Below are positions 8,608 through 15,479 of a stretch of 59,986 nucleotides of DNA, in pieces. This DNA comes from Fibrobacterota bacterium. GTDB taxonomy: Bacteria > Fibrobacterota > Fibrobacteria > UBA5070. The number at the start of each line of letters is the position of its first letter. Positions within the stretch are counted from its first letter, which is position 1. Where the stretch lies: the NCBI GenBank assembly GCA_039798065.1, contig JBDKGS010000002.1, positions 1 through 59,986 on the forward strand. Reading direction: 5' to 3'. Under the pieces are notes generated by a model. That model had not been told where the DNA came from, did no database searches, and worked only from the letters and a program-made list of their open reading frames with translations. The position numbers and the translations under genes were made by a program.

Positions 8608-8999
8608 AGTCTTCCAACTCCCTTTGCGAAAAGAAAAGCTTCAATGACGGTGAAAACAATAATCAAAGACGAGCCGGTCCAGGCAACGAAATATCGCTCG
8701 GACGGAAATTGCCAAAGAAAGACTGAAAAGAGGATTAAAGAGGCGATAAATCGAATACTCAATATTGCAATCGGTATGCCAATTCCTTTGCGATTCGAAT
8801 CGTGCCAAAGTCGTTGCCCAAGCCAGATGTGCGGGAGCATGGCGCCGGTGCCGAGGATGAGTCCGCGGGTGGTGGCGTCGCGCAGCGAGGGAATGGCGAC
8901 GTAGGCGACGACAAATCCCGTCCAAGCCACGACCAGAGCGCGTACAAGGGCCAGATGCGAAGTCCGCCAGCGATCGGATGGATTGACGGAATTTGTCAT
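8604..8999 (-). CDS. atpI: ATP synthase protein I-like membrane protein
   Basis: 131-aa multi-TM ORF with a 4-nt overlap with atpB, in the position of atpI. The assignment rests on position and topology only. Confidence 0.55.
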   Translation of the reverse strand: MTNSVNPSDRWRTSHLALVRALVVAWTGFVVAYVAIPSLRDATTRGLILGTGAMLPHIWLGQRLWHDSNRKGIGIPIAILSIRFIASLILFSVFLWQFPSERYFVAWTGSSLIIVFTVIEAFLFAKGVGRL

Positions 9000-9229
9000 G
9001 GCGATTTGGATGATGTCTTCCTGACGAACGAGTAGAGCGCGTAGGCGATTCCCGAGATGGATCCTATCACCACCGGGGCGGCGGAATCAATCGCTTTTCC
9101 CAAAATCCACCCAACCAGGGTGTAACCGAGGATGGTCGCAAGAATTTCTCCCCCGAGCGTGATCCACTTGAGTGGTGGGGGAGTGGAAGACACTAGGCCT
9201 TGGCCTTGGCTCCGGACTGCATTTCGCAC
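8996..9229 (-). CDS. AtpZ/AtpR-like small membrane protein of the atp operon
   Basis: 77-aa ORF with two TM helices ('GGEILATILGYTLVGWILGK...VVIGSISGIAYALY') and a 4-nt overlap with atpI. An alternative GTG start at 9193 would abut the bactofilin stop (TAGTG). Confidence 0.5.
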   Translation of the reverse strand: MRNAVRSQGQGLVSSTPPPLKWITLGGEILATILGYTLVGWILGKAIDSAAPVVIGSISGIAYALYSFVRKTSSKSP

Positions 9230-9549
9230 TTGCCGTGGAAGACGGCACCTTCGAGGATGATCAGCTCGCGGGTGCGAAGATCGCCGACCAGCACGGCCTT
9301 GTTTTCCAAGATCACCCTGTCGTTGGCGGTCACGTTGCCCGTGACCTTTCCGCCGATCTTCACGGATGCCGCTTGGATTTCTCCTTCGACGACACCTTGG
9401 ATGTGGACGGAAACGGTTCCCGTCGCACGGATGATTCCCTTGACCGTGCCTTCGATCGAGAGATCGTTCTCCACCAGCAGTTCGCCGGTGATGACCGTTC
9501 CCGAATTCACGAAGGCAAAGCCTTTGCCGGTGGAGGATTTTTCAGACAT
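9193..9549 (-). CDS. Bactofilin (polymer-forming cytoskeletal protein, DUF583)
   Basis: 118 aa with repeated beta-helix pattern 'ITGELLVENDLSIEGTVKGIIRATGTVSVHIQGVVEGEIQAASVKIGGKVTGNVTANDRVILENKAVLVGDL'. Confidence 0.85.
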   Translation of the reverse strand: MSEKSSTGKGFAFVNSGTVITGELLVENDLSIEGTVKGIIRATGTVSVHIQGVVEGEIQAASVKIGGKVTGNVTANDRVILENKAVLVGDLRTRELIILEGAVFHGKCEMQSGAKAKA

Positions 9550-9552
9550 GGT

Positions 9553-10383
9553 TCACCGTATCATAGCAATCAAGGGGTCGATGGCAAGTCCGTTTACCGA
9601 TATACGCACTCGTATATGGGCCGAAGCCTCACCCCCCGATGGAGTGGTTTCCGCGAATGTTTGTCCGCGATGGATGATGTCGCCGGGTTTGACTTCGATT
9701 TGACCGAGGTCTCCCACCGAGTATTCGACACCGTTGAGGAGAAGCAATTTCACCGACAAACCCATGGTGGCATCCCAACCCACAGACGAGACCACGCCGT
9801 CGTCGGGACTGGAAACCGGTTCGCCAGAGGGAACGAAAAAGACGCGTTCATCCATGGCGGTGTTGGCCGTTCCGTTCTGGAGCGCGCGAGGGATCATGCG
9901 CCAATCGGGGAGCAGAGGCGCGAGATTGAGAGGCTTGGTTTTGACTTGTTGCGTCAAACGAAGCATGAAATTTTTGGAACGATCTGCGGCGATTTCGTCC
10001 AGGAACTTCTTGCGAGCGGCATCGTCGAACAGTCCCGAAGCTTTGGCGACGGTTTGGGTTGCGCTTTCGGTGGGGTCGTCCAAAAAGGATTGGGTCAGGG
10101 CCATCAGCGATTTTTCGCGTTCGGCCATCCGATTGACCTCTTCCTGCAAATGGGCCACCCGAGTCAACTGGCTGCGCAGTTGGCGATTTTCGGAAGCGAT
10201 GACTTCCGCCGCTTGCAGGCGCACCGCGATCACACCCATCCAAGTCACCGCCACCCCAGCCAAGATCACCAGGATCATGAACGACACCAGCAGGAACTGG
10301 AACAAATTCAGCGGAATGCCGATCTGCCAGGATTCCCCGGTTTGGTCCCGAAGGACCAAAAGCTTGAGCCGCTCGCCTTTCAA
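9553..10383 (-). CDS. Membrane-anchored coiled-coil protein with a degenerate LytM/M23 peptidase domain
   Basis: 276 aa: N-terminal TM helix, coiled coil, then a C-terminal M23-like fold ('GEPVSSPDDGVVSSVG...VKPGDIIHRGQTFAE...IDPL'). The HxxxD and HxH metal ligands are not recognisable (HIR stands in place of HxH). Confidence 0.7.
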   Translation of the reverse strand: MKGERLKLLVLRDQTGESWQIGIPLNLFQFLLVSFMILVILAGVAVTWMGVIAVRLQAAEVIASENRQLRSQLTRVAHLQEEVNRMAEREKSLMALTQSFLDDPTESATQTVAKASGLFDDAARKKFLDEIAADRSKNFMLRLTQQVKTKPLNLAPLLPDWRMIPRALQNGTANTAMDERVFFVPSGEPVSSPDDGVVSSVGWDATMGLSVKLLLLNGVEYSVGDLGQIEVKPGDIIHRGQTFAETTPSGGEASAHIRVRISVNGLAIDPLIAMIR

Positions 10384-10394
10384 GTGCGCTTCCC

Positions 10395-11303
10395 TTACCC
10401 GCCGAATCCGAGGATGATGTCGGCCACGCGGGTGAGGTCGTCGTTATTCAGGACATCGACCTTCAGAAATCCTTTGCCGATCTCGTTGACTTCCAACGTG
10501 ACCCGGGTACCCAGCCGCTGCTCGAGCGAGCGGAGGAACGCGACCTGATTCGGGTCTTCAGGGGCGGTCTTTTTGGCCGGCTTGGCTTCCTTGGCGGCCT
10601 TTGGTTTTTTGGCCGAGACCTCGCCGGATTCGGTCTCCAGCGTTCGGACGCTCCAACCTTCTTCTTGGGTCTTGCGAGCCAACGCGACTTGTTTGTCTTC
10701 ATCGACCCCGGCCAACACGCGAGCATGGCCGGCTGAAAGAGTGGCGTTGGAAACCATGTCGCGGACGGTGGGGTGGAGGCGCAACAAGCGCAACGAGTTG
10801 GTGATGGCCGGGCGGCTTTTGCCCAAACGGTCGGAGAGTTGCTCGTGGGTGTAACCGCACGAGTTGATCAACTCTTGGTAGGCGAGGGCCTCTTCGATGG
10901 CGTTGAGCTGGACGCGCTGGATGTTTTCCAACAGCGCGATCTCGCGCATGTCGCGGTCGGTGACCTGGTCGCGGACCAACGCGGGGATGGTGTCCTTGCC
11001 CGCAAGTTGGCTGGCGCGGAACCGTCGTTCGCCGGCGATGATCTGGTAGACCCCGCCTTGCTTGCGAACCAAGATCGGTTGGAACACACCCTTTTCGCGG
11101 ATGGATGCCGCGAGGTCTTCCAGCTCGTCTTTGTTGAATTCAAGGCGAGGCTGGTACGGATTCGGCTGGATCTGGGAGATGCGCAGCGTCTCGACATGCG
11201 AGCCATCGGGGGAGGGGGTCCCAGGAAGATCGTCTTTGTGGGCCAGTGTCTTTTCCTGGAAGATCGCTCCCAGTCCTTTGCCCAATCCGCGCGGCTTGTT
11301 CAT
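10395..11303 (-). CDS. parB: Chromosome partitioning protein ParB (Spo0J)
   Basis: 302 aa from 'MNKPRGLGKGLGAIF', including 'IIAGERRFRASQLAG' and an HTH region. Its ATG overlaps the parA stop (ATGA). The upstream 250 codons of the long ORF overlap parA and are rejected. Confidence 0.93.
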   Translation of the reverse strand: MNKPRGLGKGLGAIFQEKTLAHKDDLPGTPSPDGSHVETLRISQIQPNPYQPRLEFNKDELEDLAASIREKGVFQPILVRKQGGVYQIIAGERRFRASQLAGKDTIPALVRDQVTDRDMREIALLENIQRVQLNAIEEALAYQELINSCGYTHEQLSDRLGKSRPAITNSLRLLRLHPTVRDMVSNATLSAGHARVLAGVDEDKQVALARKTQEEGWSVRTLETESGEVSAKKPKAAKEAKPAKKTAPEDPNQVAFLRSLEQRLGTRVTLEVNEIGKGFLKVDVLNNDDLTRVADIILGFGG

Positions 11304-12076
11304 GCCGAGAGTCCCATCACTTCCTGTGCGAGTTTCATGTAGGCGACCGCACCCGGGGTCGCGATGTCGTAGAGCAAGATGGGCTTCCCGAACGAGGGGG
11401 CTTCGGCCAGCTTGATGGTCCGGGGGATCACAGCTTGGAACACCTTCTCGTGGAAGGAGGTCCGCACTTCTTCCACCACCTGCTTGGACAGGACCGTCGA
11501 GCTCTGGTGCATGGTGAGCAACGCACCTTCGATCTGGAGGCCGGGGTTGAACGACTGCTGGGTCAGACGGATGGTGTTGAGAAGTTCGGCCAAACCTTGC
11601 AGCGCGTAGTACTCGCACTGGATGGGGATGAGGCACGACTTGGCTCCGACCAACACGTTGAGCGTGATGAGCCCAAGCGATGGGGGGCAGTCGATGAGGA
11701 TGAAGTCGTAGCGATTTTCGATGAACTGGATGAACGACTTGAGACGGATCTCGCGGTGCTCCATGTTCACGAGTTCGATCTCGGCGCCCGCCAAATGGTG
11801 GGTGGCGGGGACCAGATCCAGGAACGGAAGCTGGGTCTTCATGATGTAGCCCGCGGCCCGTTCCGGGGACCAAGCTTCCTCTTCCAGCAGCGCTTCGTAC
11901 AGCGTCGGTTCGTCGCCGATGGTGATGCCCACACCTTGGGTGGCGTTGCCCTGGGGGTCGGCATCGATGAGAAGGGTCCGGCGTTCGGCCATGGAGAGTG
12001 CAGCCGAAAGATTGACGGCGGTGGTGGTTTTGCCCACTCCGCCCTTCTGGTTGCAAATCGCGATGATGCGCGTCAT
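11300..12076 (-). CDS. parA: Chromosome partitioning ATPase ParA (Soj)
   Basis: 258 aa with the deviant Walker A 'NQKGGVGKTTTAVNL'. Confidence 0.95.
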   Translation of the reverse strand: MTRIIAICNQKGGVGKTTTAVNLSAALSMAERRTLLIDADPQGNATQGVGITIGDEPTLYEALLEEEAWSPERAAGYIMKTQLPFLDLVPATHHLAGAEIELVNMEHREIRLKSFIQFIENRYDFILIDCPPSLGLITLNVLVGAKSCLIPIQCEYYALQGLAELLNTIRLTQQSFNPGLQIEGALLTMHQSSTVLSKQVVEEVRTSFHEKVFQAVIPRTIKLAEAPSFGKPILLYDIATPGAVAYMKLAQEVMGLSA

Positions 12077-12702
12077 GATTCAGCCTGGTTCGTTAAGGTC
12101 TTGGCAGTGACCAAGTTACGGAGGCCTTCCTCTCCGGGGAGGCGGTACGGAACATAGGACAGCGGAAAGTAGCCGTCAATTTCCGCAACTTGTTCGTCGT
12201 GCTTGTAGGTCACAAAATGACCGCCCGGAACAAGGAACGGTAGAGCGCGTTTTGCGTCTTCGGGAATGCTCCCCACGGCGCGGCAACTCACGACTTGGCA
12301 CTTGGCCCGGATGTCGGGGAAGGTCTGGATCAGCTCGACTTTGGAGCGAAGGATTCGCACGTTGGTCAGCCCAAGGTCGACGGACATCTTCTGGAGATGC
12401 TGCGCTCGGAGACTGCGAGGTTCCACTCCCACGAACTTCCAATGGGGGAGAGCGATGGCCAACGGGAACAACGGAAAGCCTGCACCCGATCCAAAGTCCA
12501 ACCACTGACCCGGCACATCCAACTGAAGTTCTTCCGAGACGATCAAGGGCGCCAGTGAATCTTGGATGTGCTTGGCGAACAGATCGGGGAGATCCACACT
12601 GCTCACCAGGTTCTGGGACTGACTCGCCTTGCGCGTCAAACTGCTCAACTTCTGAAGCGTTGCATGAGCGGCGGCAGGAATGGGAGGCTGCGAATGTTTC
12701 AC
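12073..12702 (-). CDS. rsmG: 16S rRNA (guanine527-N7)-methyltransferase RsmG (GidB)
   Basis: 209 aa with the SAM motif 'WLDFGSGAGFPLFPLAI' and a 4-nt overlap with parA. The GTG start lies inside parS-1. Confidence 0.85.
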   Translation of the reverse strand: MKHSQPPIPAAAHATLQKLSSLTRKASQSQNLVSSVDLPDLFAKHIQDSLAPLIVSEELQLDVPGQWLDFGSGAGFPLFPLAIALPHWKFVGVEPRSLRAQHLQKMSVDLGLTNVRILRSKVELIQTFPDIRAKCQVVSCRAVGSIPEDAKRALPFLVPGGHFVTYKHDEQVAEIDGYFPLSYVPYRLPGEEGLRNLVTAKTLTNQAES

Positions 12703-12710
12703 GTGAAACC
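12695..12710. promoter_or_regulatory. parS: parS site 1 (ParB-binding centromere-like site)
   Basis: TGTTTCACGTGAAACC matches the consensus TGTTNCACGTGAAACA at 15/16 positions. It overlaps the rsmG start codon. Confidence 0.85.
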
Positions 12711-12853
12711 AATCTGAAGGAAGATCTCGATCCGCACCGCGGACTCGTTGCTTCCCACAAAGATGATCTCACTTCTGGAGATGGGGGAGGGCGACCTCCA
12801 CTTCCCACTCAACTTCCCTCAAGAAACTTCTCCACCCACCCTTCACCCTCCCA

Positions 12854-12869
12854 TGTTCCACGTGAAACC
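12854..12869. promoter_or_regulatory. parS: parS site 2
   Basis: TGTTCCACGTGAAACC (15/16). Confidence 0.85.
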
Positions 12870-12968
12870 TCTCCGGTATTTGTCCCTGACGGATTTGCGG
12901 GTGGGGAGAGTTTGTCTGTCCGCTGGCATGTGCCCATGCACGCTCCCAGCCAATCTCTCCCCACCCGC
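12854..12968 (+). repeat. parS-hairpin module, copy A
   Basis: parS, then a ~27-nt pyrimidine-rich spacer, then a 72-nt hairpin. The outer stem is GCGGGTGGGGAGAG (12897-12910) paired with CTCTCCCCACCCGC (12955-12968). The conserved loop is TGTCTGTCCGCTGG-GCATG-tgcc-CATGC-ACGCTCCCAGCC. Confidence 0.8.
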
Positions 12969-13118
12969 TGTCGCCAGGTTCCCAGCCTTCAATTTCGCCG
13001 CCTACAGAAGAACGATGGGTCGGCCTCTTCTTGTGCAACCGAATCATGGGTGCTGGAAGAATGGTGGAAAGGTGGGGGAGTGGATGCCTCTCGCCAGGTT
13101 CCAGAGATGTCTTTCGCA

Positions 13119-13134
13119 TGTTCCACGTGAAACC
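13119..13134. promoter_or_regulatory. parS: parS site 3
   Basis: TGTTCCACGTGAAACC (15/16). Confidence 0.85.
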
Positions 13135-13235
13135 TTTCCCGTCGTTTGGTCTTTACCGGTTTTGCGGGAGGGGTGAGCTTGTCTGTCCGCTGGCGTGAAC
13201 ACACGCACGCTACCAGTCAAGCTCACCCCTCCCGC
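13119..13235 (+). repeat. parS-hairpin module, copy B
   Basis: Same layout as copy A. The 18-bp outer stem is GCGGGAGGGGTGAGCTTG (13164-13181) paired with CAAGCTCACCCCTCCCGC (13218-13235). The inner hairpin is changed compensatorily to GCGTG-aaca-CACGC. Confidence 0.8.
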
Positions 13236-13732
13236 GAGTCTCAGGTTTTCGATCCATGGAAGATCTCCATCCAGTTACGCGAAGGAGGGAAGCCTGACCA
13301 AATGATGGGGGAGCCTAATCTTAGGGAAGACGTGCGGTCGTACTCGAAGCGAGGTGGTCACCTCTAGAGAACGTTGGCTGAGCTGTCTCGGTGAAGAGGG
13401 GGAAGTGTCTGCCAGAATAGGATGAGGGGAGTGGCGGTAGCCTCCTCAACTCAGTTTGATTTCCGACGACCCAAGGCGCTGATCCCACCCCAAAGAGATC
13501 TCCACCTGATGGATGATGAAGCGCATCTCAGATGCCACACCCATCCCCCTAAGAGTTCGGAATCCGATCTCCAAGTAGTAGGGGAGATGACCTCCCAAAA
13601 CTTGGCTCAGTGGAACACGGTCTTGTCGGATCATGCTCCGAAACGAGTCGATTCTCCAACGATCCAAACATCCTGAAGTAGAAGGGGACGCATACTCTCC
13701 ACCTCCTTCATCCTTTCGTTTGCCCCCTCCAA

Positions 13733-13748
13733 TGTTCCACGTGAAACC
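13733..13748. promoter_or_regulatory. parS: parS site 4
   Basis: TGTTCCACGTGAAACC (15/16). Confidence 0.85.
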
Positions 13749-13846
13749 TTCTCCGGTTTTTCCTCGCCAACTTTCCGGGGTGGGAGGAGGATGTCTGTCC
13801 GCAGGCATGAGCACATGCACGCTCCCAGCCACCCTCCTCCCACTCC
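13733..13846 (+). repeat. parS-hairpin module, copy C
   Basis: The outer stem GGGGTGGGAGGAGGAT (13777-13792) pairs with ACCCTCCTCCCACTCC (13831-13846): 14 Watson-Crick pairs, 1 G-U and 1 mismatch. The inner hairpin is GCATG-agca-CATGC. Confidence 0.75.
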
Positions 13847-13988
13847 TCGAACTTGGATGCACCAACCTGAACGACCGACCATTCACCTGACTCTACACGC
13901 TCCACCTTAAACCCGGGTATCCAGTCCAAGGGATCTCTCAGATAGGTGAGGGAAGTGGGGGTGAGGTGGAGAGGTCGCCTCCTTATGC

Positions 13989-14004
13989 TGTTCCACGTGA
14001 AACC
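13989..14004. promoter_or_regulatory. parS: parS site 5
   Basis: TGTTCCACGTGAAACC (15/16). Confidence 0.85.
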
Positions 14005-14102
14005 TTTCTCGGGTTTCCCTCTCCAACTTTCCGGGGTAGGAGGAAGATGTCTGTCCGCTGGCATGAACACATGCACGCTCCCAGCCATCCTCCACCCACC
14101 CC
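13989..14102 (+). repeat. parS-hairpin module, copy D
   Basis: The outer stem GGGGTAGGAGGAAGATG (14033-14049) pairs with CATCCTCCACCCACCCC (14086-14102) at 14/17 positions. The inner hairpin is GCATG-aaca-CATGC. Confidence 0.7.
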
Positions 14103-14657
14103 TCAAGCGGATGCTTCCCTAAGTGAACCTCAAGACTTCATACCTCCCGCAACCCAGACTTCCAGCCGCCAACTTCCCACTCCTCAACCCTTTCATTCAT
14201 CATTCCCGAAAAGGGCGAGGCACCCAAAGGGTGCCAATGCCCGACAAACCGAAACATGAGTGGGGGATCCCGAAGGGGGTCGCGGTCATGGAGTGCCGCC
14301 AACCAGACCATCGGCCGCCCTTCGACTTCGCTCAGGGACCGAGGCCGATGGGTGAGAATCCCGTTGTGGCGGCACGTAAGTAGCGACCCTCTTGGGTCCG
14401 GCAATCCAAAGGGCCCGGACTGGCCCTTTGGTGCCGAGGGGGTCCAGAGGGGCAGCGGCATGAGCGGCCCCTGTGAAACGGAAAGCCCAGACGCCAGTCT
14501 GAGAAAGACAAAACTGTCGGAGACAAACCTGAAAGGACAAAGCGAAGCGCACCGGGGTCCGGGGCCAAAGCCCCGGAGAAGGGGTAGCCGCAGGCTCCCG
14601 CCACGGGAGTGAATACCCAACGGCGGAGCCGAAAGCTAGGGGGAGACGTCCCCCTCC

Positions 14658-15479
14658 CTATTGTTCCACGTGAAACAATCGCTTGTGAAAGAACCCAAAG
14701 TGCCAGCTCGGCGTCGCTTCGATCAGCGGGCGGAAGTCCTGGTCCAAGAGGAGATCCCAGTGGGCGATCACATCCGGGGAATAACGCTGAAGGCGAAGTT
14801 GGTAGGAGGAAGGTCCCGGCAACAAGGTCCCGGTCCAAATCTCGGGAGCGATGCCTTCACACCAAAGTCGGGGGAGCGGGGTGACCTGGGTGGAGTGACC
14901 CATCCACGTTCCGGGGACCCCTTGGGTGGGTGGTCGTTGGTCGGCCAGAAAGGCGACGAGTCCATTCCGACGGAGAGTCTTGTGCGCGGCGCGGACTCCG
15001 GTCTGGTTGTAGAGGACCGGGGTCTTGTGGAATCGACGGACGTGTTCCAGGAGGAGTTGACCGGGACGTTGGTGAGCGGCGCGGGCCACACCGATACAGT
15101 CGGGTCGCAGGTGGAAGAGGATTCCGGCGAGCCACTCCCAGTTGCCGTGATGCATGGAAAGGAAGAGAGCCGGTCGTCCGGTCTGGGTCCAAGTGGAGGA
15201 GATCTGGGACAGGGGAGTGAGGTCGAGGCGGTTCCATCCACCGGTCAGGAGGAGGACGGCTTCGCGCAAAGCATTGCGAAAAAGTTGGCGGGGGAGGTTG
15301 CTCGGAGGATGGGGGAGAACGGATTGGGCGAGGAGAGCGATTTCGGAATTGCGGGGAATGGGCAACCAGCGCCCTAACGGGGAGGTCAACGCGAGGAGGA
15401 TGCGTTGGGTGAGAGACGGTCGGAAGGGGAGGTCGACGACCAGGGTCTCGAGGGGTGTGAAAGGAGAGGTCGTGGTCAT
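14658..15479 (-). CDS. LpxL/HtrB-family lipid A (lysophospholipid) acyltransferase
   Basis: 273 aa with 'SMHHGNWEW' (the HxxxxE/D acyltransferase motif as in HtrB/MsbB). The length is typical. Confidence 0.65.
   Translation of the reverse strand: MTTTSPFTPLETLVVDLPFRPSLTQRILLALTSPLGRWLPIPRNSEIALLAQSVLPHPPSNLPRQLFRNALREAVLLLTGGWNRLDLTPLSQISSTWTQTGRPALFLSMHHGNWEWLAGILFHLRPDCIGVARAAHQRPGQLLLEHVRRFHKTPVLYNQTGVRAAHKTLRRNGLVAFLADQRPPTQGVPGTWMGHSTQVTPLPRLWCEGIAPEIWTGTLLPGPSSYQLRLQRYSPDVIAHWDLLLDQDFRPLIEATPSWHFGFFHKRLFHVEQ
14662..14677. promoter_or_regulatory. parS: parS site 6
   Basis: TGTTCCACGTGAAACA matches 16/16, identical to the classic Bacillus subtilis parS. It lies in the last codons of the acyltransferase gene. 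Confidence 0.9.

Follow-up and report, generated by a model that had tools for sequence, protein, structure and literature searches.

A parS-linked hairpin repeat unit in the chromosomal centromere region of a Fibrobacterota bacterium

The window analysed here is a 59,986-nt stretch from a Fibrobacterota bacterium of the UBA5070 lineage (GenBank assembly GCA_039798065.1, contig JBDKGS010000002.1), in which a cluster of six parS centromere sites lies beside the genes rsmG, parA and parB. Four of these sites head copies of a direct-repeat unit that also carries a spacer and a hairpin with an outer and an inner stem. Comparison of the copies, within the window and among related genomes, shows the hairpin to be under selection for within-strand pairing, and its apical sequence, mismatched internal loops included, to be under selection as well. 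The evidence supports the view that the structure is both selected and tied to parS. Our tentative reading is that the unit is young and locally amplified, and that the hairpin functions as a single-stranded stem-loop, most likely as RNA within transcripts spanning the array, and would be recognised by way of its conserved tip. The notion of the hairpin as a working part of the centromere is weakened by the youth of the element, its narrow range and the decay of some copies.

Architecture and covariation of the repeat unit

All six parS sites (GTTYCACGTGAAAC) match the pattern GTTNCACGTGAAAC exactly, at 12696, 12855, 13120, 13734, 13990 and 14663, and there are none elsewhere in the 60 kb; counted on both strands, the window holds 12 matches to the pattern against 0.16 expected. 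The sites fall within 12696-14676, beside rsmG-parA-parB, and have the attributes of chromosomal parS, namely a 16-bp palindrome matching TGTTNCACGTGAAACA and an adjacent parA-parB operon whose ParB bears ParB_N and HTH domains. Sites 2 through 5 each head one direct-repeat unit (modules A through D), which consists of the parS, a pyrimidine-rich spacer of 27-29 nt in the window copies, and a 72-nt two-level hairpin. The modules start 265, 614 and 256 nt apart, with unrelated sequence between them, and the core TGTCTGTCCGC[T/A]GGC occurs exactly four times in the window, always inside a module.

The copies share one fold. At the base is an outer stem of 14-18 bp, followed by a 1x1 mismatch and a CTG/CAG helix. 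A 3x3 loop (TCC/TCC) separates this helix from a second one, GC/GC, and a 2x2 loop (TG/AC) separates the latter from the 5-bp inner stem, which is capped by a 4-nt loop. In hairpin A the 14-bp outer stem ends at a T.T mismatch, and two 3-bp helices separated by a 1x1 loop then lead up to the 3x3 loop TCC/TCC, above which come 2 bp, the 2x2 loop, the inner stem GCATG/CATGC and the loop TGCC. Compared with shuffled sequence, the RNA folds of A through D have z-scores of -5.7, -7.2, -4.5 and -2.6 on the plus strand and -5.5, -7.0, -4.6 and -4.7 on the minus strand. The initial annotation had proposed four parS-headed modules with a spacer and a two-level hairpin, and in this it was right: positions and stems are correct, and each copy folds in that way. 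Some details require amendment. The loop core that it called almost invariant is present in all four copies, but was given one G too many (the true reading is CGC[T/A]G-GCATG, not [T/A]GG-GCATG), and copy B reads ACGCTACCAGTC. Its statement that the outer stems stay complementary holds for A (14/14) and B (18/18) and was overstated for C, with 2 defects, and D, with 3. Positions 14158-14200 resemble the 3' arm of hairpin C and might be what is left of the right half of a fifth unit; the match was rejected as too weak, with a score of 39 against 23.6 +/- 4.1 for shuffles, the highest of which reached 41.

Relatives were reached through homologues of RsmG and of the neighbouring acyltransferase, and through cluster members, which together gave the orthologous locus in 17 other contigs (identified below by L numbers). 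The set used for alignment comprises 11 distinct complete hairpins and a truncated twelfth (L056) from five genomes, each with 2-4 copies. Within the window, copies A and B differ by four double-sided stem changes and no one-sided ones, and account for all four compensatory double changes seen there; the five stem differences between C and D are all one-sided, and none is compensated. When the two copies of L047 are added to the four of the window, 94% of pair cells are paired and 8 pairs are altered on both sides, a result reached by 0 of 500 shuffles, with slid partners pairing at 37-50%.

The full set of 11 aligns without a gap, and 94.5% of its pair cells are standard pairs. Double changes affect 11 of the 28 pairs and amount to 28 cells, compared with 10.0 +/- 2.3 cells in column shuffles; none of 500 shuffles reached 28, and none reached the observed pairing score. 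In a further control, sliding the 3' partners by 1-3 columns left 37-50% paired. An independent run of RNAalifold returned the identical 28 pairs on either strand. Compensatory change at both nested levels, which had been claimed from the window copies, is thus borne out across 11 copies and five genomes, including the inner-stem GCGTG/CACGC of copy B. The inner stem exists in four variants, all of them complementary (GCATG/CATGC, GCGTG/CACGC, GCGCG/CGCGC and GCACG/CGTGC), and one intermediate is preserved in L047, where both copies have a G to A change in the left arm: L047B has the matching C to T change, giving an A-T pair, and L047A still has A.C.

The internal loops T.C, TCC/TCC and TG/AC are conserved in sequence and have not turned into pairs in any of the 11 copies. 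Mean pairwise identity falls from 95% for the parS and 86% for the 40-nt core (mostly loop and compensated positions) to 69-71% in the outer arms, 54% in the spacer and 50% in the 3' flank. Pairing is not perfect throughout, as hairpin D and the L056 copy M1 carry 3-5 defects.

The association with parS is equally consistent. Each of the 12 hairpins, the truncated one included, adjoins a parS in the same orientation, and the spacer measures 25-29 nt in all 11 complete copies despite spacer identity of only ~54%. The two ancestral parS, at the start of rsmG and the end of the acyltransferase gene, never carry a hairpin. A covariance-model search, one of the checks named in the initial annotation, was run on both strands of the window and 14 loci (191 kb); it returned the known copies only, every match parS-linked, with no orphan. 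With filters off, the whole 60-kb window again gave the four known copies only, and no copy was found in the 20-kb flanks of L054 or elsewhere outside the parS island in 131 kb of related loci. The sequence scanned for orphan copies corresponds to ~2% of one genome. All copies come from one ancestral unit, and the parS linkage is therefore a single retained event rather than twelve independent ones; it is a linkage retained while the spacer drifted nearly to saturation and large indels reshaped the DNA between units. Scans for the core GTCTGTCCGCNGGCN{8,12}GCACGCT yielded 16 matches in GTDB species genomes and 24 in JGI metagenome contigs, all of them chance matches with no hairpin or parS. 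These scans say nothing of spread within the genome, as the organism's own contigs lie outside both sets and the pattern-matching L054 copy M2 was not returned.

The parS sequences of the units show some variation of their own. In L054 unit M2 (8848-8861) the two variable parS positions are swapped, giving GTTTCACGTGGAAC in the orientation of the window plus strand, with the remainder of the unit in its usual orientation. Most other units have GTTCCACGTGAAAC, and two have GTTTCACGTGAAAC. The swap indicates that parS half-sites also vary in paired fashion.

Distribution among relatives

The unit is confined to a clade in which RsmG is at least 95% identical. Wherever segments were compared, three loci are identical to the window: L049, L052 and L050, the last of which lies on a contig of 523,887 nt. 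Copies number 4 in the window, 4 in L051, 2 in L047, 3 in L054, at least 2 in L056 and at least 1 in L053; L047 lacks window positions 13236-14213, and with them units C and D, and the point at which L043 departs from the window comes just ahead of unit A's position. A copy number that ranges from 2 to 4 among near-identical genomes implies that the island turns over quickly. L051 is identical to the window over 12600-14203, and for this reason carries no information for a comparison of selection on module and flank; from there to 14658 substitutions and indels set it apart at 92 positions, and so sharp a boundary suggests recombination inside the island.

Beyond this clade the hairpin is missing from the orthologous locus, as found in five relatives at 69-78% RsmG identity (L017, L018, L045, L046 and L048). 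Three of them (L018, L045 and L046) have a spacer of 160-250 nt with three parS, and in L017 and L048 the island is expanded and made of other hairpin repeats. The description of the hairpin as built into the centromere accordingly fails as a general design: the unit belongs to a narrow clade, its copies vary from 2 to 4, and some are decaying.

Other hairpin repeats occur in the parS islands of distant relatives (L017 8690-9860, L018 9830-9870, and L048) and also in L054 (9660-9790). Among them are a REP-like palindrome with a GTAG head (GTAGGGGCGATTCATGAATCGCCCCTAC) and a hairpin of nested form (CCGCCGTACCCTGAGTG...CGAAGGGTAGGCGG), and L017 has in addition two degenerate parS (GTTCCAAGTGAAAC). 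In this lineage, structured repeats in general seem to accumulate in the parS island.

The surrounding locus

The acyltransferase gene and rsmG are separated by 1,955 bases with no convincing gene, the acyltransferase gene lying upstream on the same strand as rsmG. Gene order at the locus is constant: HSP20, GGACT, hypothetical, acyltransferase, parS region, rsmG, parA, parB, M23 peptidase, bactofilin and ATP synthase. The M23 peptidase and bactofilin genes stand directly 3' of parB (9193-10383 of the window, minus strand) wherever the contigs of relatives reach that far (L017, L045, L048, L049, L054 and L056), a neighbourhood that recalls the bactofilin-ParB links described in Myxococcus. parS 1 is centred exactly on the GTG start codon of rsmG (12702-12700, minus strand), an arrangement kept in every relative examined, down to 69% RsmG identity, and ParB at this site would cover the beginning of the rsmG-parA-parB operon. 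A box, GAGATCATCTTTG (12757-12769, minus strand), some 55 nt upstream of the rsmG start, is kept in all relatives though its surroundings are not, and may be the rsmG promoter or an operator. Features of the locus are listed in Table 1.

Table 1. Coordinates of the parS sites, repeat modules and flanking genes in the window
Feature	Position	Strand	Remarks
parB	10395..11303	minus	ParB_N E = 2e-33, HTH_ParB E = 3.7e-33
parA	11300..12076	minus	258 amino acids; called from size and synteny with annotated relatives
rsmG (GidB family)	12073..12702	minus	GTG start codon
parS 1 (GTTTCACGTGAAAC)	12696..12709	unstranded	no hairpin; ancestral, in all relatives
module A	12854-12968		
parS 2 (TGTTCCACGTGAAACC)	12854..12869		head of module A
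module A spacer	12870..12896	plus	27 nt, pyrimidine-rich
hairpin A	12897..12968		72 nt; 14-bp outer stem, inner stem GCATG/CATGC
module B	13119-13235		
parS 3	13119..13134		head of module B
hairpin B	13164..13235		perfect 18-bp outer stem, inner stem GCGTG/CACGC
module C	13733-13847		
parS 4	13733..13748		head of module C
hairpin C	13776..13847		outer stem with one G.T and one A.C
module D	13989-14103		
parS 5	13989..14004		head of module D
hairpin D	14032..14103		most decayed window copy (two A.C and one A.A); folds clearly better on minus strand
parS 6	14662..14677		3' end of acyltransferase-like gene; no module hairpin; ancestral, in all relatives
LpxL-like acyltransferase gene	14658..15479	minus	borders parS island on the side opposite rsmG

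Two other stretches of the island are conserved in part of the clade. The DNA between modules B and C (13236-13732) is conserved and non-coding; it is close in L056, more diverged in L054, where it has frame-breaking indels, and absent from L047. Beside parS 6, a purine-rich, hairpin-rich stretch of ~450 nt (14205-14655, plus strand) is kept in L047, L051 and L054, all of which are without the 20 nt (14317-14336) that are inserted in the window copy. Its consensus fold reaches -143 kcal/mol on the plus strand, with 10 covarying pairs, against -121 on the minus strand, and it has no Rfam match. It is a candidate structured non-coding RNA antisense to the flanking genes. A replication origin at the island was considered and ruled out, given that cumulative GC skew climbs steadily across the window with no switch and that the island has no A+T-rich stretch.

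The modules do not read as genes. Several frames are open through them, and a 92-amino-acid open reading frame over module A has been called by JGI, but a coding function was rejected on account of the frame-shifting spacer indels (25-29 nt) and the compensatory variation of the stems. Inspection of open reading frames that begin at the GTG within parS shows them to be alike in their first three residues only, which also counts against coding. Comparison of six-frame module translations with a protein collection was uninformative, giving 8000 word-sharing candidates and none that scored.

Possible roles of the hairpin and its nearest counterparts

Pairing within a strand matters only when the strands are separated, and the element would therefore work as a single-stranded stem-loop. 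The reading that we tentatively prefer places this stem-loop in RNA: transcripts running through the array in the same direction as the flanking genes would carry it (on the minus strand, in the order hairpin, spacer, parS). The island would have grown as one unit of ~115-135 bp was locally duplicated, lost and converted. Much like the intergenic hairpins of REP and ERIC elements, each stem-loop would act as a pause, processing or decay barrier just ahead of an added ParB loading site, and its conserved apical loops would probably be read by a protein. The unit would persist on the supposition that extra parS are useful and that each copy needs its hairpin.

The minus strand, from which both rsmG and the acyltransferase gene are read, is weakly favoured. 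Ten of the 11 copies are more stable as minus-strand RNA, and all four window copies also fold better on that strand with DNA parameters. Near-pair cells on the plus strand comprise 9 A.C versus 5 G.T, and in five copies the 3x3 loop has a variant middle base that yields U.G or G.U on the minus strand only.

Several observations weigh against the transcript reading. The preference for one strand is weak and comes partly from loops shared by descent in copies that are not independent. The modules contain no terminator-like or sigma-70-like promoter site, and no U-tract follows the hairpin on either strand. The box GAGATCATCTTTG lies between parS 1 and module A, and if it is the rsmG promoter the modules are outside the rsmG leader and could be reached only by read-through from the acyltransferase gene. 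Recent copies (C versus D, and the orthologues A, L047A and L053A) show one-sided changes only, which, with the 3-5 defects of D and L056 M1, means that selection on pairing is not strong. Finally, a young element of a single clade cannot be essential to ParABS.

Individual signals were sought as well. The sequences found 3' of the hairpins are TGTCGCC, GAGTCTC, TCGAAC or TCAAGC on the plus strand and AAATCC, AAAACC or GGAAAG on the minus strand; an intrinsic (Rho-independent) terminator was rejected, there being no U-tract after the G+C-rich hairpin. The TAnnTTTG motif of the Bacteroidetes type is nearly absent, at 2 + 2 in the 60 kb, with none in the modules. A sigma-54-like TGGCA(N)...TGCA was noticed in the core on reading the sequence and set aside, its spacing being off by one base.

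Alternatively, the element might act at the level of DNA, as a partner of parS that forms a cruciform, or a fold on transiently single-stranded DNA, and in this way alters the loading or sliding of ParB clamps (as a roadblock or corral) or offers SMC condensin, recruited by ParB, a place of entry on structured or single-stranded DNA. The 25-29-nt distance from parS, held while the spacer drifts, would fit such a role, as would pairing kept on both strands with no decisive strand bias, the ability of both strands to fold as DNA (-15 to -34 kcal/mol) and the lack of transcription signals in the units. A reported preference of bacterial condensin for loading on single-stranded DNA (PMC9682359) points the same way. 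That said, the hairpin would extrude poorly. It has 2x2, 3x3 and 1x1 loops within 16 bp of a G+C-rich tip, near which ~16 of 72 positions per strand are unpaired, and ~16 bp would be lost per arm pair; a cruciform is unlikely for that reason. Moreover, a barrier 27 bp from every loading site would be expected to hinder rather than help the spreading of ParB, relatives manage with three plain parS, and no experimental precedent for such an element was found in the literature. On balance we regard a role as DNA as unlikely. We think it rather unlikely that the hairpin is a centromere cofactor, that is, folded DNA or nascent RNA at a fixed distance from each added parS that ParB, SMC or a clade-specific adaptor would read via the apical loops, and that would tune clamp loading, the limits of spreading or condensin entry. 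It is highly improbable that each module is a small RNA (sRNA) gene whose promoter overlaps parS, so that ParB would control 2-4 sibling sRNAs with the hairpin as their body. Other bacteria are known to have sibling sRNAs in tandem, some plasmids have centromere sites that overlap promoters, and the left edge of the unit does coincide with parS; yet nothing upstream of parS is conserved in sequence, the modules have no promoter of the sigma-70-like or TAnnTTTG type, no U-tract terminator follows the hairpin, and a conserved single-stranded seed region is lacking.

The remaining alternatives deny the linkage or the hairpin a function. REP/BIME, ERIC and Correia elements are imperfect intergenic palindromes with compensated stems, which have been proposed to act either at the DNA level, as sites, or as hairpins in RNA, where they would be decay barriers or RNase targets, and the element resembles them in being an imperfect non-coding palindrome of tens of nucleotides that is compensated between copies. 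It is conceivable, if somewhat unlikely, that the hairpin is an ordinary genome-wide repeat of REP, ERIC or MITE-like character, one copy of which lay beside parS by chance and was duplicated along with it, so that the linkage has no functional meaning. The abundance of other hairpin repeats in the parS islands of relatives, GTAG-headed REP-like ones among them, is in keeping with this, and only ~2% of a genome was scanned. What speaks against it is that no copy lies outside the parS island in the unfiltered 60-kb search, the L054 flanks or the other loci, that no copy found lacks a parS, and that spacer length has been held. The pattern of conservation is also reversed, with a conserved tip rather than conserved ends, the opposite of MITE terminal repeats and REP heads. 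Unlike REP and ERIC families, which are dispersed and conserved at the base, the element is undispersed in the sequence scanned and variable at its base; it stands always 25-29 nt from a parS and has 2-4 copies, in the parS island, rather than tens to hundreds. At 72 nt it exceeds the 20-40 nt of REP elements, and it has no conserved GTAG or GTGG 5' head of the sort that a RAYT transposase recognises, the base varying between copies as GCGGG, CGGGG or ACGGA. Nor does it look like a MITE, since its end arms are its most variable part (69-71%), one end is a parS, and no flanking direct repeats are seen. The arms could also belong to a functionless palindrome kept symmetrical by template switching during replication (quasi-palindrome correction), in a unit that hitch-hikes on selection for more parS. 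Two of the four double changes between A and B are T-A to A-T swaps, difficult to make by way of a wobble pair and easy by templated copying, the near-identical L047 copies point to conversion, and copies decay. Template switching alone could account for the pairing of the arms but not for conservation of the tip, because the mismatches there are conserved in sequence: the process should erase the six mismatched near-tip positions, and all 11 copies conserve them. A 40-nt core of 86% identity between stems of ~70% and a spacer of 54% likewise needs purifying selection on the core, which makes this explanation quite improbable.

With respect to known families, neither the window nor 8 related loci gave a match at Rfam gathering thresholds, and under E-value thresholds the only models to match were generic miRNA-precursor hairpins, which scored 17-34 bits where the cut-offs are 47-97. 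There was no match in viral contigs, phage records or plasmid records, and the literature yielded no description of a parS-associated hairpin module. The assertion that no such structured module has been described therefore holds across Rfam, the plasmid, phage and viral records and the literature.

The closest parallels are partial. Integron attC sites are imperfect palindromes of 57-141 nt, conserved in structure and in their unpaired bases, that act as folded single strands, and the hairpin is like them in putting structure before sequence and in conserving unpaired bases. Unlike attC, which has conserved basal boxes (RYYYAAC / GTTRRRY) and a variable centre, it is conserved at its centre and varies at its base, which reads GCGGG...CCCGC or a variant with no GTTRRRY, and there is no integrase or cassette array. 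Clusters of chromosomal parS near parAB are found in Caulobacter and Myxococcus, and Corynebacterium glutamicum has 10 parS near parAB (PMC7083940). The window shares with such clusters the presence of several TGTTNCACGTGAAACA sites within a few kb of parAB, here with one over a gene start and one over a gene end; it differs from those described in that 4 of its 6 sites head a hairpin-bearing repeat module and arose by module duplication in a very recent clade. In the sopC centromere of F, a 43-bp direct repeat occurs 12 times, and each repeat contains a 16-bp inverted repeat to which SopB binds (PMC3177203). As in sopC, direct-repeat units with one ParB-type palindrome each stand beside the par operon in variable copy number. 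The window array, by contrast, is chromosomal, its units recur at intervals of 256-614 nt and not uniformly head to tail, and each bears an additional 72-nt hairpin constrained in structure.

The centromeres of ParABS systems are usually treated as plain protein-binding palindromes. A hairpin kept with each new parS through drift, duplication and loss would be the first hint of a second, structured component in some chromosomal centromeres. The locus is a clean test case for this idea, with a unit of 115 bp, natural variants whose stems are compensated or uncompensated, unit numbers of 2, 3 or 4 in sister genomes, and outgroups that lack the unit. Even if the hairpin should turn out to be an ordinary intergenic repeat, the locus would still show a centromere expanding, within a species-level clade, by duplication of a parS-bearing repeat.

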